DNA of 32,000 nucleotides from Candidatus Omnitrophota bacterium (GTDB taxonomy: Bacteria > Omnitrophota > Gorgyraeia > Zapsychrales > JANLHA01), in the NCBI GenBank assembly GCA_963662715.1, contig OY759724.1, forward strand, positions 810,001 to 842,000. The letters are read 5' to 3'. The first letter of the stretch is position 1. The number at the start of each line of letters is the position of its first letter. This document shows, piece after piece, positions 2,768 to 31,894 of this stretch. Under the pieces are notes generated by a model. That model ran no database searches. It was given only the letters and a program-made list of their open reading frames with translations, and had not been told where the DNA came from. Made by a program: the position numbers and the translations under genes.

Positions 2768-4057
2768 TTACTGAAGTTTGTATTTTATTAGAAATTGTCT
2801 TAACCTGTGACGATAGTCAGGTTCCACCAAAGTCGCATAATGGCCGGCGGATTCAACCCAGTAGAATTCCTTGGGGGACCGGGCTTTATCATAAAGGCTT
2901 TTCGACTCGCCCCAGGGGATCAACCGGTCGTTCTTTCCGTGAATGATGAGAACCGGCCGGTCGTGGATATGCGGGATGACCTGCTGCGGCGCATAATCCC
3001 TCAGAGGGAAGCCGCATTCCAAATCGACGAACATCAATCCCAGCCTGGCAATAGTATCTGTCAAAAACGGCGGGACAAACCTCACCAAATCAACAACCCT
3101 CTTTGCCATCGTCTCAACATCAGAAAAAGACGAGTCAACGACAAGGGCTTTGATACGAGTATCCTCCTTGGCCGCGTGAATGAGCGCTGCGCCGCCGAAA
3201 GAGACACCGTAGCCGATGATCTTATCCGGGGCCATATCCGGACGGGCCGATAAATAATGTACGGCAGCGATAATATCATATTTTTCTCTTGCCCCGAAAG
3301 TCACCGTATGCCCCTCGCTGTGGCCGTGTCCGCGGAAATCAAAAATGAGCACATTGTATCCCAGCCCATGCCACAAATCGACCAAAGGCAGAAAATTCGA
3401 TTTATTGGCCCCCAAGCCATGACCGATAACGACACTGCGGTCGCTCGTGGGACAAGCAACGAACCACGCATGCAGTCTCACCCCGTCTCTTGTCCGTAAC
3501 CAAACCTGCTCGTAGGAAAGGTTCAGCTCAGACCGCGGATCAACCTGGTCGCCTATCTTGGGACGGTGAATGCTGAATGCGGCCAGGATATACGGCAGGA
3601 TAATCAAAAACCATAAACAGACATAAATCAGGCCGGAGATAATCTTTCGTTTTTGCGGGTTCCGGAAAGGGCTGACAAGCCACGCCGCAAAAGCTTTGAT
3701 GATGCAACGGGTATAATAGATAATGATTCCGACAGCCAATAAAAAATAAGAAGCCAGAAACACCTCTTTCCAGATAATTTTCCACCGCATCGTGTAACTG
3801 AAATACCAAAAGAACGCCACGACACACACAAAATAGCCCGCGGCTTTGAAAGCATGGCGCCAGCGGAATAAATTTTTCAAAACATCTCTGCGGAACAAAA
3901 AATGGAAAAGGCCCCACACGAGGGGAAGGCTCATATAAAAAACTTCATTAGGGAAAGGAAGAATATTGTGGAAGGAAAACAAAATCCAGAGAGAGCCTGC
4001 GGAAAGAATCAAAATCCTGCCAATGTTTTCCGGACACAACAGTTTGCGTGAGCTCAT
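2768..4057 (-). CDS. Membrane-anchored alpha/beta-fold hydrolase
   Basis: About 170 aa of N-terminal TM helices, followed by HGLGANKSNF...FDFRGHGHSEG, the nucleophile elbow GYGVSFGG (GxSxG), and a late H in ESAGHY. Confidence 0.85.
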   Translation of the reverse strand: MSSRKLLCPENIGRILILSAGSLWILFSFHNILPFPNEVFYMSLPLVWGLFHFLFRRDVLKNLFRWRHAFKAAGYFVCVVAFFWYFSYTMRWKIIWKEVFLASYFLLAVGIIIYYTRCIIKAFAAWLVSPFRNPQKRKIISGLIYVCLWFLIILPYILAAFSIHRPKIGDQVDPRSELNLSYEQVWLRTRDGVRLHAWFVACPTSDRSVVIGHGLGANKSNFLPLVDLWHGLGYNVLIFDFRGHGHSEGHTVTFGAREKYDIIAAVHYLSARPDMAPDKIIGYGVSFGGAALIHAAKEDTRIKALVVDSSFSDVETMAKRVVDLVRFVPPFLTDTIARLGLMFVDLECGFPLRDYAPQQVIPHIHDRPVLIIHGKNDRLIPWGESKSLYDKARSPKEFYWVESAGHYATLVEPDYRHRLRQFLIKYKLQ

Positions 4058-4067
4058 AAAAATCCCG

Positions 4068-5105
4068 TCATTCCTTTTTGCTCATACTAAAGGTCCCGCT
4101 AAATCCGACGCTGTCTTTCCATTTTCCGAAAATAAACGTCTGCGATTTATCCATCCGGCCTTCAATGTCAATACGGACATCATTTTCACTGATAAATCCG
4201 TAGGCAAACTCGCCTGTTGAAGCCTGAAACGTATCCATTTTTTTCGGCTCGAAAACCAGCCCGCTGCCTAATGTCCCTTCTATAATCCGCCCTGTTTTAT
4301 CTACGTTCAACAAGACGTTTAAAGGGATCCCCAAAAGCATATATGTTCCGCGCCAGGCCCCCTGAAATGCTCCGCGATCATATTTCCCCTCTTTCCTATC
4401 TCTGGCGGGGAAAGACGAATACACCGTTTGGACCTTATCGGACAGCGCCAAATCTTCCGGAGTAATCATTTCCCGGTCAAGAGGCACATAACCGCCCGCG
4501 ATGTCCCGGATATCCTCTTCATAAGGACGCCATGACAAATCTCCTAACTTCACAAAACGCGCCAGGGGGATCCCCGCCCCTTCCCACGCAGCCTTGTAAA
4601 TCAACTCGGAGCAATAAATTTTCCTGTCATCCCACTCATACTGGATATCATAAGGACGGTTGAGATAGCGCTCCGCCTGGCGTACAATCCGGGGGATACG
4701 GGGCTGATAAGCTTCTTTCAACCGTACGATAGTGAATTTATCATTAACGCCCCGGCTGATCCATTCATCAATAGGAGTGAACTTAACGGGACCGATCGCC
4801 TCAAGCACAAACCATTGCTCACCTCTCTTTACGATAATGCCGCAATGGGAGTAGGGACTCTGCGTGACCGCGGCGACCATTTCCGTTAAAGGACCGGGCA
4901 AATGCTGAAAGATAAAATCACCGTGACGGATATGAATATTCTTCGTATAATCAACAACTTTGGATTTCGCGACAGTCAATGCGTAGGAACGCGGGGCTTG
5001 ATAAATAATATTGCCTATGCCCAATAACAGCACAACAAAAAGGATTTTTCTCTTTCGGGGGTGAAGGCTATGATGAGGACAATTCTGGTTTAAGGTCATA
5101 AACAT
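4068..5105 (-). CDS. YiiX/YaeF-type permuted papain-like (NlpC/P60-related, C92) hydrolase with extra C-terminal domain
   Basis: N-terminal hydrophobic anchor. SPYSHCGIIV...WFVLEA and YDIQYEWDDRKIYCSELIYKA match the permuted His...Cys arrangement of the YiiX family. About 110 extra C-terminal residues have no recognisable family. Confidence 0.65.
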   Translation of the reverse strand: MFMTLNQNCPHHSLHPRKRKILFVVLLLGIGNIIYQAPRSYALTVAKSKVVDYTKNIHIRHGDFIFQHLPGPLTEMVAAVTQSPYSHCGIIVKRGEQWFVLEAIGPVKFTPIDEWISRGVNDKFTIVRLKEAYQPRIPRIVRQAERYLNRPYDIQYEWDDRKIYCSELIYKAAWEGAGIPLARFVKLGDLSWRPYEEDIRDIAGGYVPLDREMITPEDLALSDKVQTVYSSFPARDRKEGKYDRGAFQGAWRGTYMLLGIPLNVLLNVDKTGRIIEGTLGSGLVFEPKKMDTFQASTGEFAYGFISENDVRIDIEGRMDKSQTFIFGKWKDSVGFSGTFSMSKKE

Positions 5106-5134
5106 TAACCATTCAACTATGTGGATAAAAAAAT

Positions 5135-5605
5135 TTAATCATGCGTCAGGCAAGACAACCATTTCACAAGATGTTTGGCTGTCGCCTCCTGTTCTTTTTC
5201 CGATAATTTTCCCATAAAATTTTTAAGCTTCGTGCAATAAGGCGCCCAGACCCGGTCCAGTAAAACCTCCGCCTTTTTCGTAACCCTGATCACATTGACT
5301 CTCCGGTCGCCGGGTAAGGCTGAACGCGTCACAAAACCTTCCGCCTGCAGTTTGTCAATGAGTTTCGTCATATTGGACGGCGTAACGATAAGATGTTTAC
5401 TGATCTCAACCTGGCTTACCCCATCACTGCCGCCATGAAAACGAATAGCGACCAGGATATTCAGCTTTCCCGGGGTTAAATGATACGGCTTCAAGTAGGA
5501 TGTCATTTCATTGTGACAAATATTATAAATCAAAGCGAGGCTATAAACAGCTTTTTCAAAATTTTGACTTTCTTCCAAGATGCCGTATCTCTGCAGGTCA
5601 CTCAT
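5135..5605 (-). CDS. MarR family transcriptional regulator
   Basis: Winged-helix core LTPGKLNILVAI...VSQVEISKHLIVTPSNMTKLIDKLQAEGFVTRSALPGDRRVNVIRVTKKA. AAAGGAA RBS. First gene of a same-strand trio separated by 29-nt and 10-nt gaps. Confidence 0.9.
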   Translation of the reverse strand: MSDLQRYGILEESQNFEKAVYSLALIYNICHNEMTSYLKPYHLTPGKLNILVAIRFHGGSDGVSQVEISKHLIVTPSNMTKLIDKLQAEGFVTRSALPGDRRVNVIRVTKKAEVLLDRVWAPYCTKLKNFMGKLSEKEQEATAKHLVKWLSCLTHD

Positions 5606-5628
5606 TCAGGATTCCTTTCGTTGATTAA

Positions 5629-5657
5629 AGTTTACCATTCAACCATCAACCTGTCAA
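5629..5657 (-). promoter_or_regulatory. Sigma70-like promoter for the marR operon with repeat motifs in the spacer
   Basis: The minus strand reads TTGACA (5657-5652), a 17-nt spacer, then TAAACT (5634-5629). The spacer and flank contain GTTGATGGTTGAATGG (GTTGA direct repeats) and GTTGAT...ATCAAC. Confidence 0.45.
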
Positions 5658-5703
5658 GTGGAGGACAAAAATGGCAATCTTGCAGGTTTGCCGTATCATT
5701 AAA

Positions 5704-6957
5704 CTAACCGGGCTCCGCATCACCGGACTCATCAGGAGGGTCCCCCTGAAAAATTCTGTCACAAGCCGTCTTAAAGCGCAACCAAAGCGCATCGGCCTGA
5801 TCCGAGGGAACAGCCCCTATGTTTTTCCACGCCCTCTGCATGTCTTTAACTTGTTCCCGGACCGTCGATAAATCCCGCAAAGGGAACAAACTCTCCGCCT
5901 CCTCGCAAAGGAGTTGTTTTTCCTTCAAATGGTTGAGACGCTCTTCATCTCTTGCCTTAAAATATTCATGCCTCCGCTCAAAAAAATGATCGTGGGCCCT
6001 TTTAAACCGCAGCCAAACGGCATCCGCTTCCTTTTTGGGGACAGAACCAATGTGTTTCCATGCTTCCTGGAGCTGTTTCAGCTCCTCTGCCGCCGCATGC
6101 CAGTCGTCAGATTCGGACAATTCCTCTGACCGCTCACACAAAGTTATTTTTTTTCGCAAATTATCTTCCCTTTCTTCATCAAGTTTTTTATAAAAAGCTT
6201 CTCGTCTCTGAAAAAAGGTGTCGCTTGCGGCTTTAAACCGCCGCCAGATATCTTCTGTCTTCCCCCGGGTCACAGGACCGATCTTCTTCCATTCCTCCAT
6301 CAAATGTTTTAATTCCTCAGCGGTGACCTTCCAGTCCGAGGAAAGGCCTAATTCCTCCGCTTTACGGCAAAGGTCTTCTTTTTTAAGATAATTGTCCGCT
6401 TTTTCACGATCCAGCTCGGCATAAAACAAACGCCTGTTTTCAAAGAACTCATCACAAACAGCACGAAAGCGGTCCCGCATATCACGCTTTTTGCTTTCCG
6501 GAACCGGTCCTGTTTTCTTGAACCGGGCCTGGATAGCTTTCACTTCCTCCGAAGCCGCGTGCCAATCGTCAGGATGAAGCAACTGCTCCACCCGCCGGTA
6601 TAATTCTTCCTGTTCGTCTAAGTTCCTGCTGAGCTCACGGTCTAACACGACTTTGATATCCATCAGCTTCTTTAACAGTCCGTCAAAGTCCCCAATCGCA
6701 TCAGACTCGGTTATAAAATCAAGCATCCGGTTGATCTTGTCCAAAAGCCCCGGCTTGTCTTTAGCTTCTTCAAATTGCGTCTGCAATTCCTCGTAATACT
6801 GTTCTAATTTCTCAAACCGTAATGCGTAGTAAGCTAAAACTTCCTGTGCACCTTTTCCGTCCAGCCGTCCGATTTGACGGCCCTTAAAAGCCTGGCAATC
6901 CTTTTGCCAAACCTGGCCCTGATCATCAACATACCCCCACTCTTCCGGGAAAGTCAT
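5704..6957 (-). CDS. DUF349 domain repeat protein
   Basis: Four to five repeats of the DUF349 signature DW..A.EELK.L...WK.IGPV......W.RFK.A.D.FF.RR. AAGGAGAG RBS. Confidence 0.85.
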   Translation of the reverse strand: MTFPEEWGYVDDQGQVWQKDCQAFKGRQIGRLDGKGAQEVLAYYALRFEKLEQYYEELQTQFEEAKDKPGLLDKINRMLDFITESDAIGDFDGLLKKLMDIKVVLDRELSRNLDEQEELYRRVEQLLHPDDWHAASEEVKAIQARFKKTGPVPESKKRDMRDRFRAVCDEFFENRRLFYAELDREKADNYLKKEDLCRKAEELGLSSDWKVTAEELKHLMEEWKKIGPVTRGKTEDIWRRFKAASDTFFQRREAFYKKLDEEREDNLRKKITLCERSEELSESDDWHAAAEELKQLQEAWKHIGSVPKKEADAVWLRFKRAHDHFFERRHEYFKARDEERLNHLKEKQLLCEEAESLFPLRDLSTVREQVKDMQRAWKNIGAVPSDQADALWLRFKTACDRIFQGDPPDESGDAEPG

Positions 6958-8920: not shown

Positions 8921-9781
8921 TCAATGCAATCGAATCTCCACCCAAACGGGAACGTGGTCACTCGCAGTCCGGTTATAAATACGATCGGCGCCAACGCTCT
9001 CCAGGCCCTTTGTAAATATTAAGTCCAGTTTAGACTTTTTATTTAACCAATACCAATGTTTATAGGTCCAGGCAAGATCATCCGTCGCCAGAAGGAATCC
9101 CGAACGCTCAAACACATCAACAATAGGCTGAAGATGATTCTGTGTATACGTATTAAAATCACCCGCGATCAGACAATGGGGGGATTCGCCCGGGACGGCA
9201 GCTAAGACAGCCACTGCCTGTTCCAGTCTTTTTTGAGGAGTCAGGATCGCGCCCAGGTGAGTCGAATAAACCAGAACCGGGGTTTCTCCGATTAATATCG
9301 TTGCTTCAACAGCAACCCGGTGCAGTTTGTACAACCGGTCCGCATCAGAATGCGGCAGATTGATCTTTCTATCCGCCAGGACAGGCCACTTGGATAAAAC
9401 GGCATTACCGAAATCACTGTTGTTCGCCGGATGAACGGCCGAGGGATAATAAACATAATTATACCCCAATATCCGAGCCACCTGAACGACAGACTCGGCC
9501 GTCATTTCCTGTAAACAGATAATATCCGCATCTTTCACCTCTTCGTTCTCTGTTAAAATCCTTACAGCTTCTTCGACCTTACGGCTCAGTTGGATATTAT
9601 AAGTCACGACTTTAATTGTTCCCGGGCTCTTCGTATTAAGAGGCGCTACATTAAAATCCGCATACCTGGGGCCATCCCCTGCCTCATAGTTTTGTACGTA
9701 CGCCAAATGCGTGCAGGACGCAAAAAACAGACAAAAGCATATAACGGCAATGCCCAAAATCCCTTTCAGTTTCACTTTCAT
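8921..9781 (-). CDS. Endonuclease/exonuclease/phosphatase (EEP) family lipoprotein
   Basis: Lipobox-like FFASC. VVTYNIQ, ADIICLQEM and the C-terminal SDHVPVWVEI are canonical EEP motifs. Confidence 0.85.
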   Translation of the reverse strand: MKVKLKGILGIAVICFCLFFASCTHLAYVQNYEAGDGPRYADFNVAPLNTKSPGTIKVVTYNIQLSRKVEEAVRILTENEEVKDADIICLQEMTAESVVQVARILGYNYVYYPSAVHPANNSDFGNAVLSKWPVLADRKINLPHSDADRLYKLHRVAVEATILIGETPVLVYSTHLGAILTPQKRLEQAVAVLAAVPGESPHCLIAGDFNTYTQNHLQPIVDVFERSGFLLATDDLAWTYKHWYWLNKKSKLDLIFTKGLESVGADRIYNRTASDHVPVWVEIRLH

Positions 9782-18514: not shown

Positions 18515-18561
18515 AAAGCCCCCCTTGAGCACAAGGGCGTTATTCATAAAATCATTCGCGC

Positions 18562-18595
18562 AAAAAAAATGCCTATCCTTAAAATAAAAGAATAG
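18562..18595 (-). terminator. Intrinsic terminator forming the expression platform of riboswitch copy 1
   Basis: Minus-strand RNA CUAUUCUU-UUAUUUU-AAGGAUAG forms an 8-bp stem and is followed by GCAUUUUUUUU. The 5' arm CUAUUCUU can alternatively pair with AAGGAUAG in the aptamer. Confidence 0.6.
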
Positions 18596-18624
18596 ACAGT
18601 GACATAACGAGTCAATGATATTAT

Positions 18625-18735
18625 ATCGGTAACTGGCTATCCTTTTTTCAGGACCCTTTAGCTTTGCGCCCCCACCTTACGATGCACGCCCAGCGGCGTG
18701 TCAGCCTTTTCGCTGAGGTTTGCCTTTGTCGTATT
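18625..18735 (-). promoter_or_regulatory. c-di-GMP-I (GEMM-I) riboswitch aptamer, copy 1, with a 32-nt insertion in the first arm
   Basis: The reverse complement reads AGGCAAACC-[UCAGCGAAAAGGCUGA][CACGCCGCUGGGCGUG]-CAUCGUAAGGUGGGGGCGCAAAGCUAAAGGGUCCUGAAAAAAGGAUAGCCAGUUACCGA. The blocks GGCAAACC, a GNRA-capped hairpin, GGG(A/G)CGCAAAGC, GGGUC and AGCC..GUUACCGA match the Vibrio cholerae Vc2-type GEMM-I consensus as I recall it. Confidence 0.8.
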
Positions 18736-18753
18736 GACTCAAATCCTAATTAA

Positions 18754-18783
18754 ATTATAAACCAAACAAGACGGGGAATGCAA
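18754..18783 (-). promoter_or_regulatory. Sigma70-like promoter of the riboswitch-pseudopilin transcript
   Basis: The minus strand reads TTGCAT (18783-18778), an 18-nt spacer, then TATAAT (18759-18754). The predicted start lies ~10 nt upstream of the aptamer. Confidence 0.55.
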
Positions 18784-18944
18784 ATCTATTCAAAAACAGC
18801 CGCACGACATCCCTTTTTATCGCATCTCTCCCCTTCCGCAACAATTTTGGAGAACGACACAGTCTTAAATAGTTCAGCTTTCTTTTTTGGATTTTTCCTT
18901 TATAATAAAAAAATAGTCATTGTTTAACAACTTTAGTGCCCCAG

Positions 18945-27682: not shown

Positions 27683-28852
27683 CTAAAATATGACATTAGC
27701 CAGAATCCCCCAAAACATGACCTGCGGAACCGTAATAACAGGAAGCCACAGGGCCGTTTTCCTGCCGACATTATGCCACAGCAAACCTATCTCCGTATAA
27801 TCTGTCGCAACCCCCGCCATAAGAAAAACAAAACTATTCCCGAGCGCCCCTGTTTGCCGAAAAATCTCAAAAGCAAGCGGAGAAGATCCTTCCGAACAGA
27901 CTTCAATCACCGTTGCCGCCAGAAGCGTCACCAGCATCCCCGAGAAACTGGGCCCCATGTATTGCTGAAAAATATGTTCCGGGATATAGGCACCAGCGAA
28001 ACTGGCCAGTCCCACACCGATCAAAATCCACCACAACACCATATTTGATAAAGCCACCGCCCCCTGGCAAATGCCTTTCAGGTCATGTAAAATCTGTGCC
28101 TTTGTTAGCCGGTAATGTCTGACCCTCCGTTGAATATCTTTCAGGATCGAGACATCAGCGTCCGGGTGTAAACCGTTTTGATTGATTTCAACAAGATTTC
28201 GGGATTCCAGCCATTGATAAACTAATCCGGTTATAACCGCAACAATGATCGCACACAATATGATATATAACGCCTGTGTCAGGCCAAAAAACCCTATGAG
28301 CATAAATGTCAGGGGAAGATTGGCCCAGGGACTGGCTAAAAGAAACGCCACAACGGCGGAGGTCGAGGCCCCTTTTTTGTGAAGCTGTATCGCCAAAGCC
28401 AGTATCCCGTGACTGCATAGACTCATAAAAAAACCCAGGATAACAGCATGAAAAACAGTGCTTTTCTCCCTGCGGGCAAGAATTTTGGATATATATTCCC
28501 GCGGGATAAAATAATCAATGACGCCGCCCAAAAATAAACCTAAAAGAATAGCCCACCATATCACGCTGAAATACATAAAGAGCGCCTTGCGGAAGGGTGT
28601 CAGGAAAGGGATACCATAGGATGCGGCCGTAAGCACACCAAGACCGGCCGCCACTAAAAATATTTTGTTTCTATACCATTTGAGATTGTGAGTGCCGGAA
28701 CAATGTGAAATTTCCGCTGTATCCACAGATTGCTGCCGGGCAAAACTGTTTAAACAATGCTGTCCGCAAAAATAGTATCTTGTGCCGTTTTTCTGCAGAC
28801 TCAATGAATTCTTTGCATCCACATTCATTCCGCAAACCGGGTCTTTTGCCAT
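27683..28852 (-). CDS. Predicted metal (Cu/Zn-type) permease with an N-terminal YHS/TRASH Cys motif
   Basis: MAKDPVCGMNVDAKNSLSLQKNGTRYYFCGQHCLNSF is the DPVCGM...YYFC..C metal-binding motif. It is followed by a multi-TM permease of the DUF318/ArsP type, resembling SO_0444-like efflux proteins. GAGGAG lies 8 nt upstream of the ATG at 28852, which I prefer over the track start at 28867. Confidence 0.75.
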   Translation of the reverse strand: MAKDPVCGMNVDAKNSLSLQKNGTRYYFCGQHCLNSFARQQSVDTAEISHCSGTHNLKWYRNKIFLVAAGLGVLTAASYGIPFLTPFRKALFMYFSVIWWAILLGLFLGGVIDYFIPREYISKILARREKSTVFHAVILGFFMSLCSHGILALAIQLHKKGASTSAVVAFLLASPWANLPLTFMLIGFFGLTQALYIILCAIIVAVITGLVYQWLESRNLVEINQNGLHPDADVSILKDIQRRVRHYRLTKAQILHDLKGICQGAVALSNMVLWWILIGVGLASFAGAYIPEHIFQQYMGPSFSGMLVTLLAATVIEVCSEGSSPLAFEIFRQTGALGNSFVFLMAGVATDYTEIGLLWHNVGRKTALWLPVITVPQVMFWGILANVIF

Positions 28853-28974
28853 GATAAGTCTCCTCATATATTTCCGAAAGTTAACCTGAACGGGTTTGCC
28901 CTGTCTTGGGGTTTTCCTTAGGTTAATTTCTTTCTATCTGCCGGATTTTCTTCACTTTGGATTTAGCCCACCCT

Positions 28975-29162: not shown

Positions 29163-29894
29163 CTATTCGACCAAATATGCCCAATACCGCTGCGGCAGAC
29201 ATTGACGCTGCAGTTTCGGATTTTTGCGCTCTTCGATAGCAATGGTCTCAAAATATTTCCGCCACATATCCTGATAAAAATATTCTTCTTCCGTGAAGAC
29301 AGGCTCACGCTCTAACCGGATATCGACGACTTGACACCTCCCCGAACGATAAACGGCAGCTCGCCGGCGGACAACGTCATGGATCACCCACGGGTCATGC
29401 CTCATGCGCCTGACAAAATGAGACGATATGAGCGGAAGAATATTATGGTCCGGCCCTATTTGCGCGTAGAACCCTCCCTGCTCAAGCTCTTTAAAACGCA
29501 CCAAACCCAGCATGCGGTGGGCTTCCCGGCGAACTTTCAAAAAAAGTTTTTCAACCTGCGCCACCGCATCTTCGGACAGGAAAAAATCTGTCTGCCGGCC
29601 GTGCCGCAAGGCAAAATCAAGATACCGGTATACCATCATCCCATGCTGTCGTTTTTCGGAAAGGTAGACATAAAACACTTTCCGAATGGATTCCAAGGCG
29701 GCCTCTTTCCTGATCTTGGCCACAAAATCACAAAGGCGTTCAGCAGAGGGCGCGACTTCTTTGGCCGTTCCGAATAAGCATGGTGTGTCAGCGCAGACCG
29801 GCACAATATCCCCGGGGACGATGCCCTGCGAAAAACATTCGTCCACAACAGCTAAAAGCCCCTCAAATGTCCCGTCATAAAGATATGTTGTCAT
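29163..29894 (-). CDS. TIGR03915-type putative DNA metabolism/repair protein (DUF4130), partner of the radical SAM gene
   Basis: The start MTTYLYDGTFEGLLAVVDECF is the family-typical N-terminus. Its ATG overlaps the upstream TGA (TGATG at 29892-29896). The track start at 30005 lies inside the upstream gene. Confidence 0.85.
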   Translation of the reverse strand: MTTYLYDGTFEGLLAVVDECFSQGIVPGDIVPVCADTPCLFGTAKEVAPSAERLCDFVAKIRKEAALESIRKVFYVYLSEKRQHGMMVYRYLDFALRHGRQTDFFLSEDAVAQVEKLFLKVRREAHRMLGLVRFKELEQGGFYAQIGPDHNILPLISSHFVRRMRHDPWVIHDVVRRRAAVYRSGRCQVVDIRLEREPVFTEEEYFYQDMWRKYFETIAIEERKNPKLQRQCLPQRYWAYLVE

Positions 29895-31189
29895 CACATT
29901 TCTCCGGTCAATGTTGAGAAGACATCCTGCCGGGCGGGAGCCCGGTCCGGGAAAAGCAGCAGTTGCTGAGGCTGCCGTCGCCCGGACTCCGGATCGAGCC
30001 TGCACCTGATCGCCCGCGGATCAAGCGGGACATCACCGCAATAACGCCCGTTCACCAAGAGAAAATACCGGGCTCTTTTCATCACAACACGCAGTTTTTT
30101 CAAGTCTTCATATCTGATCCGTTTGATTTTCCGCACAGCCAAAATTTTAGCCGCAGCACGCATCCCCACCCCCGGCACACGGAGCAACGTACGGTAATCG
30201 GCCTTGTTCACCTCAACGGGAAACTCGCCGATATGCCTCAGGGCCCAGCCGGCTTTGGGATCTAAACGCTCCTCAAGGTCAGGCTGCCGTTCATCCAGCA
30301 GTTCCTCCACGTCAAACCCGTAAAAACGCAGGAGCCAGTCTGCCTGATACAGGCGGTGCTCTCTTAAAAGCGGAGGCTGCCGCGCGACGGGAAGCTGCCG
30401 GCCGTCATTGACCGGGATATAGGCTGAATAATAAACACGTCTTAAACGCATCTTTCCATACAAAAACGCACATAACCTTAAAATCTGCAGGTCTCTTTCC
30501 GGAGTCGCGCCGATGATCAGCTGAGTGCTTTGTCCGGCAGGAGTGAAGCTCTTAATATGTTTAAATTTGCGGCGCTCTTCTTTATGCCGGACGATTGTCT
30601 CATGCACCTGCTGCATCCTCGACAAAATAGACGGATAAGTCTTTTGCGGCGCAAGCAAGGTCAAACTCTTAGCCGAAGGCAGTTCGATGTTAACACTGAC
30701 ACGGTCTGCCAAACACCCGGCCTGCTGAACGAGCGTCCTGCCGGCGCCCGGAATCAGCTTCACGTGAATATAGCCCTGAAATCCATGCGTCTCCCGCAGC
30801 AGGCGCATGGTCCTGATTAAAAGCTCCATCGTGTGGTCGGGATTTTTAACGATCGCGGAACTGAGGAAAAGCCCTTCGATATAATTCTTTTTATAAAAAT
30901 TGATCGTAAGTTTGGCCAGTTCTTCCGGGGTGAATTGTGTTCTGCGGATATCATTGCTTCTGCGGTTTACACAATAAGCGCAGTCAAAGACACAGATATT
31001 GGAGAAAAGGACTTTTAATAAAGAAACACACCGGCCGTCCGCTGACCAGCTGTGACAAATACCGCCTAAACTTGCCCGCCCCAGCTTTCCCCCCTGCCGC
31101 GTTGAACCGCTGGACGCGCAGCTGACATCATATTTGGCACTGTCTGCCAATACGGCCAACTTTTGCAATAAATTCACAGGCCCCCTCAC
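29894..31189 (-). CDS. Putative DNA modification/repair radical SAM protein (TIGR03916-type) with C-terminal helix-hairpin-helix
   Basis: N-terminal KLAVLADSAKYDVSCASSG, the cluster CVFDCAYC (CxxxCxxC), and C-terminal LLRVPGVGMRAAAKIL (HhH). The start is a GTG at 31189, and its exact position is uncertain. Confidence 0.9.
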   Translation of the reverse strand: MRGPVNLLQKLAVLADSAKYDVSCASSGSTRQGGKLGRASLGGICHSWSADGRCVSLLKVLFSNICVFDCAYCVNRRSNDIRRTQFTPEELAKLTINFYKKNYIEGLFLSSAIVKNPDHTMELLIRTMRLLRETHGFQGYIHVKLIPGAGRTLVQQAGCLADRVSVNIELPSAKSLTLLAPQKTYPSILSRMQQVHETIVRHKEERRKFKHIKSFTPAGQSTQLIIGATPERDLQILRLCAFLYGKMRLRRVYYSAYIPVNDGRQLPVARQPPLLREHRLYQADWLLRFYGFDVEELLDERQPDLEERLDPKAGWALRHIGEFPVEVNKADYRTLLRVPGVGMRAAAKILAVRKIKRIRYEDLKKLRVVMKRARYFLLVNGRYCGDVPLDPRAIRCRLDPESGRRQPQQLLLFPDRAPARQDVFSTLTGEM

Positions 31190-31419: not shown

Positions 31420-31455
31420 AAAAAAAGAAAGGCAGCCTTCCGCTGCCTTTCTTTT
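31420..31455 (-). terminator. Rho-independent terminator of the small-peptide gene
   Basis: Minus-strand stem GAAAGGCAGC / GCUGCCUUUC (10 bp, 5-nt loop) followed by UUUUUUUGUG, 25 nt after the TAA at 31481. Confidence 0.8.
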
Positions 31456-31480
31456 AAAACACCCTATCCCTTTAAAATTA

Positions 31481-31615
31481 TTACTTTGCAACCTGATTTC
31501 TAACCACTTTTCCCTTGCCTTTGTCGCCATGATGCTTTCCCCCGCTGGCGAGTACAGGAGAAGCGGTTATGCCGAGAATACATCCCAACAAAAGCATGCA
31601 AATAATTTTTTTCAT
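31481..31615 (-). CDS. 44-aa secreted Gly/Lys/His-rich peptide, no recognised family
   Basis: The ATG at 31615 is preceded by AAGGAGG with a 7-nt spacer. Product: MKKIICMLLLGCILGITASPVLASGGKHHGDKGKGKVVRNQVAK. It has a signal peptide with VLA-S cleavage-site-like context and a 21-aa basic mature part. It sits between a riboswitch-controlled leader and its own terminator. The track ORF (31672 start) includes the RBS and leader. Confidence 0.6.
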   Translation of the reverse strand: MKKIICMLLLGCILGITASPVLASGGKHHGDKGKGKVVRNQVAK

Positions 31616-31701
31616 GTTCCTGTCCTCCTTTCCACATCGTCCGTTAGACTCATCACAAAGATATCTGCCCAAGCAGGCCTTTGGTCCTTTTATCCTTAAA
31701 C

Positions 31702-31736
31702 AAAAAAATAACTGCCCACCTTTATGGATAGACAGT
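31702..31736 (-). terminator. Intrinsic terminator forming the expression platform of riboswitch copy 2
   Basis: Minus-strand ACUGUCUAUC-CAUAAA-GGUGGGCAGU forms a 10-bp stem including G-U pairs and is followed by UAUUUUUUUG. The 5' arm ACUGUCUAUCC is complementary (10 of 11) to the aptamer 3' strand GGAUAGCCAGU. Confidence 0.6.
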
Positions 31737-31759
31737 CACCGGATTGATCATAATTGGGC

Positions 31760-31835
31760 TACGGCAACTGGCTATCCTTTTCTCAGGACCCTTTAGCTTT
31801 GCGTCCCTACCTTGCGATAGGTTTGCCTTTTCGTC
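31760..31835 (-). promoter_or_regulatory. c-di-GMP-I (GEMM-I) riboswitch aptamer, copy 2 (compact canonical form)
   Basis: The reverse complement reads AAAAGGCAAACCUAUCGCAAGGUAGGGACGCAAAGCUAAAGGGUCCUGAGAAAAGGAUAGCCAGUUGCC. It contains GGCAAACC, the hairpin CCUAUC-GCAA-GGUAGG with a GNRA loop, GGGACGCAAAGC, and a second hairpin with GGGUCC...GGAUAGCC. It is near-identical to copy 1 outside the insertion. Confidence 0.85.
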
Positions 31836-31865
31836 CTTCTTTCCTGCTAAACTTTATTCAATTAA

Positions 31866-31894
31866 AAGATACACGAAAAAATCCGGGAAAGCAA
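31866..31894 (-). promoter_or_regulatory. Candidate promoter for the riboswitch copy 2 transcript
   Basis: The minus strand reads TTGCTT (31894-31889), a 17-nt spacer, then TATCTT (31871-31866), about 30 nt upstream of the aptamer. Confidence 0.35.

Follow-up and report, generated by a model that had tools for sequence, protein, structure and literature searches.

Class I cyclic di-GMP (c-di-GMP) riboswitches, or GEMM-I elements, are known for cargo made up of pilus, flagellar, adhesin, and diguanylate cyclase or phosphodiesterase genes. In Clostridioides difficile, the class I switches act as terminator-based OFF switches, as at flgB. Five class I riboswitches of that species lie upstream of genes for small hypothetical proteins of ~58 amino acids (CD1424, CD1981.2, CD1990.3, CD2309, and CD3368.2), loci that have been documented without functional study (PMC11477304). 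Here we describe a riboswitch unit on the minus strand of a 32,000-nucleotide stretch of Candidatus Omnitrophota DNA (assembly GCA_963662715.1, contig OY759724.1, positions 810,001 to 842,000), which we call the window. Its cargo, unlike the usual GEMM-I cargo, is a gene of only 44 codons. The unit resembles the C. difficile loci in that a GEMM-I element precedes a small open reading frame (ORF) devoid of recognizable domains and differs from them in its host, which belongs to a candidate Omnitrophota/Auribacterota-like lineage and not to the Firmicutes. An exhaustive HMMER search of 1.84 billion representative proteins with the window peptide returned only a family marked by a GGKHHG motif and no sequence relation to the C. 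difficile proteins. A preliminary description of the locus had called the cargo unusual; because the five C. difficile loci were already on record (PMC11477304), the arrangement is less unusual than was claimed.

We consider it likely, judging from sequence conservation and predicted folding, that a c-di-GMP OFF riboswitch in this unit drives a Sec-exported, signal peptidase I (SPase I)-processed cationic peptide of 21 residues from an uncharacterized family. The evidence for each part of this reading is set out below, together with the alternatives that bear on it.

A self-contained unit conserved on a metagenome contig

The minus-strand interval 31894-31420 is a self-contained monocistronic riboswitch unit with one cargo gene. 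It opens with a candidate sigma-70-type promoter (31866-31894), composed of a -35 box, TTGCTT (31894-31889), a 17-nucleotide spacer, and a -10 box, TATCTT (31871-31866), after which comes a conserved TTAATT. The class I aptamer (31759-31836, found by cmscan against Rfam 15) and a leader intrinsic terminator (31698-31740) follow. A leader of ~85 nucleotides, with the partly conserved blocks UGUGAUGAGUC and GGACGAUGU, then runs to the Shine-Dalgarno sequence AAGGAGG (31624-31630), which lies 8 nucleotides before the ATG at 31615. The ATG-initiated ORF of 44 codons (31615-31481) has a predicted signal peptide of the Sec/SPase I type, MKKIICMLLLGCILGITASPVLA, in codons 1-23 (31547-31615) and a predicted mature peptide, SGGKHHGDKGKGKVVRNQVAK, in codons 24-44 plus the stop (31481-31546). 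A strong intrinsic terminator (31420-31455), an A/U-flanked G+C hairpin of the form AAAAGAAAGGCAGC-GGAAG-GCUGCCUUUCUUUU with a U-run, closes the unit. Every element of the complete transcription unit proposed in the preliminary description is thus present, at coordinates that were right to within a few bases; reading of the sequence bears out its AAGGAGG and 44-codon ORF, and a terminator scan its leader and final terminators.

A word-indexed search of 5.8 billion proteins with the window peptide returned the peptide itself (P0001) and one 84%-identical protein of 44 amino acids (P0002), which is encoded on a 592-kb metagenome contig (L001). This contig has the window order throughout: TTGCTT-N17-TATCTT, aptamer, terminator, AAGGAGG, ORF, and final terminator. 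Identity between the two loci is 76% in the promoter block, 91% in the aptamer, 81% at the ribosome-binding site (RBS), where AAGGAGG is kept, 88% over the mature-peptide codons, and 75% in the final terminator. It falls to 28-44% in the promoter-to-aptamer spacer, the leader, and the 3' untranslated region and to 20-33% outside the unit, the homology stopping right past the final terminator. The neighbors differ as well: a radical SAM/DUF4130 gene pair lies downstream in the window, and on L001 the unit is flanked by a DMT_6 gene upstream and a convergent MMPL gene downstream. As the whole unit is conserved in L001 amid unrelated flanks, the module behaves as an independent unit. The E-value of the aptamer and the persistence of the full unit in unrelated genomic surroundings indicate more than chance, and the terminator directly after the ORF, with the differing downstream neighbors, identifies the ORF as the single cargo.

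The coding evidence is of a similar kind. Between the window and L001, the 21 mature codons show 8 synonymous changes, all at third positions, and no non-synonymous change, so that the mature peptide is 100% identical. In the 23 codons of the signal peptide, 10 codon changes are synonymous and 7 non-synonymous. The restriction to synonymous changes in the mature part (8 versus 0) shows that the ORF is a real gene, its frame being conserved in L001 as the preliminary description had supposed, and the contrast between the two parts is the signature, read from codon changes, of a cleaved signal peptide and a strongly constrained mature peptide.

These data also bear on whether the terminated riboswitch RNA, acting as a small RNA or as a c-di-GMP sponge, could be the main product and the short ORF secondary. 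C. difficile has both an orphan c-di-GMP riboswitch and riboswitch-driven antitoxin RNAs (PMC11477304), which lends this idea a precedent. Strong purifying selection on the ORF, a perfect and conserved RBS, and the occurrence of the protein family elsewhere without riboswitches all argue the other way, and we regard a primarily RNA-based role as highly improbable.

The predicted ligand is c-di-GMP

The aptamer match (31836-31759) scored 61.5 bits, with an E-value of 2.2e-12. In Vc2 of Vibrio cholerae, c-di-GMP is contacted by G20, A47, and C92 (PMC4744006). The cmscan alignment places G at 31827, A at 31800, and C at 31764 at the equivalent positions, and the L001 aptamer (61.4 bits) has the same three nucleotides. 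The window aptamer is like Vc2 (GEMM-I, RF01051) in its two hairpins and in the conserved junction AAAGGCAAAC...GACGCAAAGC...AGCC...GCC. It further shares the nucleotides of the interhelical C-G pair (GGGA-C-GC and AUA-G-CC), both bulge nucleotides, and a GNRA tetraloop on the first hairpin, which reads GCAA in the window and GUAA in L001; the two one-sided changes between these two first hairpins preserve pairing. Unlike that of Vc2, the second hairpin is short and lacks a tetraloop receptor, a form that we take to be the "type 2" GYRA-loop architecture. Because the equivalents of G20, A47, and C92 are canonical, we predict that this canonical-core class I aptamer has c-di-GMP as its ligand.

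Another ligand would change the signal and leave the logic the same. It could be that of the GGC variant class (c-di-GMP-I-GGC, RF03167), which is the best model for the window and for L001 alike, each score lying just over the gathering score of 59, or it could be 3'3'-cyclic GMP-AMP (cGAMP), as in GEMM-Ib. The RF03167 consensus differs from that of RF01051 in reading GACGC-G-AA where the latter has GACGC-A-AA, at the A47 equivalent (model position 37). At this distinguishing position both the window and L001 have A, with a blank match line at that column; lacking the variant-defining G, the window aptamer is not classed here with the GGC variants. The high RF03167 score is explained by the short second hairpin, which the aptamer and that model have in common. 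An A at the G20-equivalent position reportedly marks the 3'3'-cGAMP riboswitches, in the work of Kellenberger and of Nelson and their colleagues from 2015; the window has G there (31827), and its C92 equivalent is C. In addition, the cmscan output suppressed one lower-scoring overlapping match of the same clan (CL00126), which passed the gathering score of its own model; it is presumably RF01051 (gathering score, 35), whose score is undisplayed owing to clan competition. Taken together, these points make a ligand other than c-di-GMP quite unlikely. The preliminary description had identified a canonical GEMM-I element by way of RF01051: its canonical core and c-di-GMP type stand, the top model being RF03167. 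An RF01051 score below the gathering threshold, which would have spoken against that identification, is very probably not the case here, although the score itself is undisplayed.

The leader is predicted to switch off transcription

The terminator scan placed the leader terminator stem at 31740-31707, with 14 pairs and a T-run to ~31698; its 5' arm occupies 31740-31726 and, beyond a loop, its 3' arm 31720-31707, before a U-tract at 31706-31698. The aptamer 3' strand GGAUAGCCAGUUGCC (31777-31763, minus strand) can form the 5' half of an antiterminator by pairing with the terminator 5' arm GGUGACUGUCUAUCC (31740-31726) at 14 of 15 positions. This antiterminator helix has a calculated energy of -18.6 kcal/mol in the window and -17.5 kcal/mol in L001, and the terminator platform alone has -18.2 and -19.3 kcal/mol, respectively. 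When the nascent RNA is folded only as far as the terminator loop, the minimum-free-energy structure of both sequences contains the antiterminator. In L001, the leader terminator is a perfect 10-bp stem followed by U8. The competition between antiterminator and terminator is conserved, with wobble-preserving changes, in three cassettes: those of the window peptide and L001 and a pilin cassette described below.

These pairings imply a transcriptional OFF switch in which ligand binding leads to termination, since a ligand-stabilized aptamer would free the terminator 5' arm; the direction in vivo is inferred. Transcription would start ~7 nucleotides past the TATCTT box. At low c-di-GMP, 31777-31763 would pair with 31740-31726 as an antiterminator and RNA polymerase would read into the 44-codon ORF. 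At high c-di-GMP, the bound aptamer would retain its 3' strand, so that the hairpin at 31740-31707 and the U-tract could form and transcription would stop after ~160 nucleotides. The complementarity of terminator 5' arm and aptamer 3' strand that was pointed out in the preliminary description is thereby quantified, and its OFF logic gains support from the folding of the competing pairings and from their conservation in L001 and the pilin cassette. Its terminated leader of ~130 nucleotides is too short, the element coordinates giving ~160.

An ON switch, or a switch acting mainly on translation or RNA stability with the hairpin as a constitutive attenuator or processing site, strikes us as very unlikely. 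The window hairpin is poor in G-C pairs, and ~85 nucleotides of partly conserved leader lie between terminator and RBS, which would suit such a scheme. However, the only long alternative pairing is that between the aptamer 3' strand and the terminator 5' arm, which is kept in all three cassettes, and no RBS-sequestering pairing was seen in the leader.

A promoter-like sequence, TAGCCA-N16-TATGAT (9/12), also occurs at 31747-31774 on the minus strand, where it overlaps the 3' end of the aptamer and the linker; the matching position of L001 reads TAGCCA-N17-CATAAT. A transcript from this site would be without the antiterminator partner. The site may be coincidental, its -35-like part being conserved for aptamer reasons.

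A paralogous cassette precedes a pilin-like gene

A second promoter, GEMM-I, and terminator cassette lies outside the peptide unit at 18555-18790 on the minus strand. Its aptamer (18734-18625) matches RF01051 at 42.6 bits and has a 42-nucleotide insertion in the first hairpin. The cargo is a prepilin-type gene (18547-18041, minus strand) for a protein of 168 amino acids with an N_methyl domain. By blastn, this cassette is 77% identical to the L001 riboswitch over 128 nucleotides. A three-way alignment shows that the pilin cassette and both peptide cassettes have in common a promoter of the form TTGC(A)TT...TATAAT/TATCTT, then TTAATT, as well as the aptamer core, the terminator 5' arm CUGUCUAU, and the antiterminator design. 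These resemblances suggest that c-di-GMP represses the peptide and the pilin-like protein together, as one putative regulon. In the window lineage, the peptide gene would have been placed behind a copy of the cassette that is also used for the pilin-like gene, and both would be expressed in the low-c-di-GMP state.

Export and processing of the peptide

The N terminus of the 44-amino-acid product divides into MKK, IICMLLLGCILGITA, and SPVLA, i.e., a basic n-region, a hydrophobic h-region, and small residues at -3 and -1. In the alignment of 18 family members, position -1 is Ala without exception, V, A, or S occupies position -3, and the family motif begins exactly at +2. These regions and the conserved cleavage-site motif agree with the Sec-type signal peptide named in the preliminary description. 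The product would enter via Sec, and SPase I would probably cut after VLA23, releasing a disordered, cationic, Gly/Lys/His-rich peptide of 21 residues into the periplasm or beyond. The predicted mature peptide has a mass of 2.19 kDa, a pI of 10.6, and a net charge of ~+4.6. AlphaFold2, run with the family alignment, gives a helix for residues 2-17 and otherwise only coil.

It is unlikely, in our judgment, that the product stays unreleased, as an uncleaved signal-anchor protein or as a lipoprotein acylated at Cys12 (L-L/V-G-C), in which case its mode of action would resemble that of type I toxin-like peptides or of other small membrane proteins. A lipobox-like sequence ends at residue 12 (LLGC in the window, LVGC in L001), the C-terminal tail, which the positive-inside rule could keep in the cytoplasm, has most of the positive charge, and the single AlphaFold2 helix would fit a membrane anchor. 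The other 16 family members, however, conserve neither Cys, and the conserved -1 Ala and small -3 residue, with a conserved motif that starts exactly at +2, point to cleavage. A fast-evolving hydrophobic segment before a frozen tail is, moreover, the usual pattern of cleaved signal peptides. Lipoprotein signal peptides are typically longer than the 11 residues that would be available here. A bacterial lipoprotein processed by SPase II was rejected as a candidate, the lipobox Cys being found only in the window and L001 and absent from the 16 other members.

The destination of the released peptide depends on the host envelope. MacB/FtsX pump genes and the prepilin-type gene in the window, and MFP/MacB genes in L001, are consistent with a diderm cell, which we assume here. 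If the host is diderm, Sec export alone would bring the peptide only to the periplasm, and the secreted extracellular factor of the preliminary description was an overstatement. The roles put forward there for such a factor, as a matrix or eDNA-binding peptide, a signal, or an antimicrobial, are conjectural.

A rare family of GGKHHG peptides

Although the preliminary description could assign the peptide to no family, one was found that is absent from Pfam and NCBIfam. The exhaustive HMMER search gave three true relatives and one repeat artifact, the latter being the top match (P0003), a Kazal-type repeat protein. The profile search that followed extended the set to ~20 protein clusters of 40-89 amino acids. 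In the 18-member alignment, the motif x-G-[GD]-K-[HN]-H-G-[DE]-K-G-[KQ]-G-x-V comes right after the cleavage site, where conservation begins; the N terminus is variable, basic, and hydrophobic. The closest subgroup has a short basic tail (...VVRNQVAK or ...VVRTQVQVKK). This alignment establishes a rare, uncharacterized, conserved family. Its members come from Candidatus Auribacterota metagenome-assembled genomes (MAGs), one uncultured Desulfobacteraceae MAG, and metagenomes. A rescan with the family profile gave 3 loci among 185,579 species-representative genomes and 9 loci in the JGI metagenome collection. Narrow patterns of the peptide had no match in the genome and metagenome collections, the window genome evidently being outside the species-representative set.

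The window peptide had no match in Pfam-A or NCBIfam, including ExtJ (NF040942) and CpxP (PRK12750). The best curated match of any family member was ExtJ, whose 21.6 bits fall far short of the cutoff of 52.5 (four members; best E, 2e-4), and the similarity of a family member to DUF6488 was subthreshold (E, 0.066). We discounted the similarities to ExtJ, CpxP, and DUF6488, which reflect signal-peptide or low-complexity matches. Among PDB sequences, all matches had E >= 0.076 and fell mostly in the signal-peptide region, and a plasmid search for the peptide was negative or far below cutoff. Two EF-hand proteins (P0021 and P0022) were rejected as family members at E >= 0.7. Both are periplasmic proteins of ~105 amino acids with EGGKHHG, the N-terminal motif of the family, right after the signal peptide, a resemblance that raises the possibility of GGKHHG being a portable module at N termini.

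The DNA of ~13 further distinct homolog loci (L002-L027) was scanned with Rfam, at the gathering score and at E <= 1, and with a GEMM-core regular expression. No c-di-GMP-I, c-di-GMP-II, or other Rfam riboswitch was found at these loci; hence, c-di-GMP control is not a property of the family, and the riboswitch link is a lineage-specific acquisition and not a family trait. The suggestion in the preliminary description that homologs might also follow GEMM-I elements holds only for the closest one (84% identity, L001). Most homologs are stand-alone genes with short leaders and terminators of their own, several of them with clear sigma-70-like promoters, and their neighborhoods are not conserved.

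Some of these neighborhoods nevertheless deserve mention. PilZ or HDOD genes occur <= 3 kb away in three contexts (L011, L012, and the P0006 locus), an anecdotal observation. On L022 (269-649, plus strand) and L025 (271-648, plus strand), a gene on the same strand directly precedes the peptide gene and encodes a secreted K/Q/R-rich protein of ~125 amino acids with repeated "...GSC" motifs. The 89-amino-acid member P0005 has a C-terminal extension, DGSCG/DGSCR, similar to these motifs, and the likeness suggests a recurrent partnership or fusion of the GSC-motif protein and the peptide. On L002, a Candidatus Auribacterota MAG, the peptide gene (3001-3135) lies between feoB and a gene for a Cache-domain methyl-accepting chemotaxis protein (3520-5802, plus strand). 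This neighbor is possibly relevant to a role as a ligand or sensor modulator; it is a single instance.

Surroundings of the unit

Directly downstream of the unit in the window, and separated from it by the strong terminator, is an overlapping gene pair (29163-31189, minus strand) for a putative DNA modification/repair radical SAM protein (431 amino acids, with an HHH motif) and a DUF4130 protein. The radical SAM protein is 70-73% identical to proteins of Candidatus Omnitrophota MAGs and other contigs (72-73% for P0031 and P0032) and ~60% identical to Auribacterota proteins; the window proteins that were looked up are each a singleton cluster. Farther along, at 27683-28867 on the minus strand, is an ORF of 394 amino acids with an N-terminal YHS domain (PF04945) and an ArsP_1 predicted-permease domain (PF03773). 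On L001, a c-di-AMP (ydaO/yuaA) riboswitch (9073-9208, plus strand; 51.5 bits) precedes the gene for a DMT_6 (PF04342) membrane protein of 109 amino acids. This unit is immediately upstream of the GEMM-I/peptide unit, so that two cyclic-dinucleotide riboswitch units are adjacent there.

Discussion

Several observations weigh against reading this locus as a c-di-GMP OFF switch for an exported and processed peptide. The promoter TTGCTT-N17-TATCTT matches 7 of 12 consensus positions and was unflagged by a promoter scan. The leader terminator has G-C in 4 of its 14 pairs and G-U in 6, and the whole leader is no more stable than shuffled sequence (z = -1.3). The best-scoring model for the aptamer is RF03167, with model positions 1-80 fully covered, and not RF01051. 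The pairing of riboswitch and peptide occurs in two loci only, the window and L001. Finally, we infer cleavage of the Sec/SPase I-type signal peptide solely from the conservation of the motif. On the first of these points, the preliminary description was right that the promoter sequence is present, and L001 and the paralogous pilin cassette both retain the block, the matching promoter of the latter supporting the call; what it passed over was the poor fit to consensus and the negative scan.

The RNA is an ordinary member of its class with a textbook expression platform and is mechanistically nothing new. The RF03167 model can evidently catch canonical-core GEMM-I aptamers with a short second hairpin, which matters for metagenome counts of "variant" riboswitches. 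What is new is the peptide family and its c-di-GMP link in the window lineage.

The role of the peptide can be approached by composition and by analogy. Its His, Asp, Lys, and Gly residues suggest binding of a metal or a polyanion. DbfQ of V. cholerae is a small periplasmic regulator protein (PMC12714742) and ExtJ of Geobacter a small periplasmic accessory protein (PMC6148476). Both are small, Sec-exported, and signal-peptide-cleaved, as the window peptide is predicted to be, a likeness that is one of analogy only; small modulators of periplasmic sensors such as DbfQ would provide another model for the peptide. Unlike these two proteins, members of the peptide family are without a conserved adjoining partner gene. 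The matches of family members to ExtJ are far below cutoff and mostly in the signal peptide, and the window peptide has none.

It is possible, though we hold the idea tentatively and would not favor it at present, that the GGKHHGDKGKG peptides are a new class of exported effector or signal peptide, wired to c-di-GMP and made only at low c-di-GMP together with a pilin-like protein. Under this idea, and with the same reserve, such a peptide might be a periplasmic or extracellular metal- or polyanion-binding peptide or the ligand of an envelope sensor. If it is true, the riboswitch would offer the first clue to function for an orphan family that occurs only in uncultured anaerobes (Omnitrophota/Auribacterota-like lineages and Desulfobacteraceae).

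In summary, small exported peptides are systematically missed by annotation, and here a well-understood sensor indicates when one of them is made. The riboswitch gives a testable physiological context, low c-di-GMP and expression with a pilin-like gene, for a peptide family of candidate phyla without cultured representatives.

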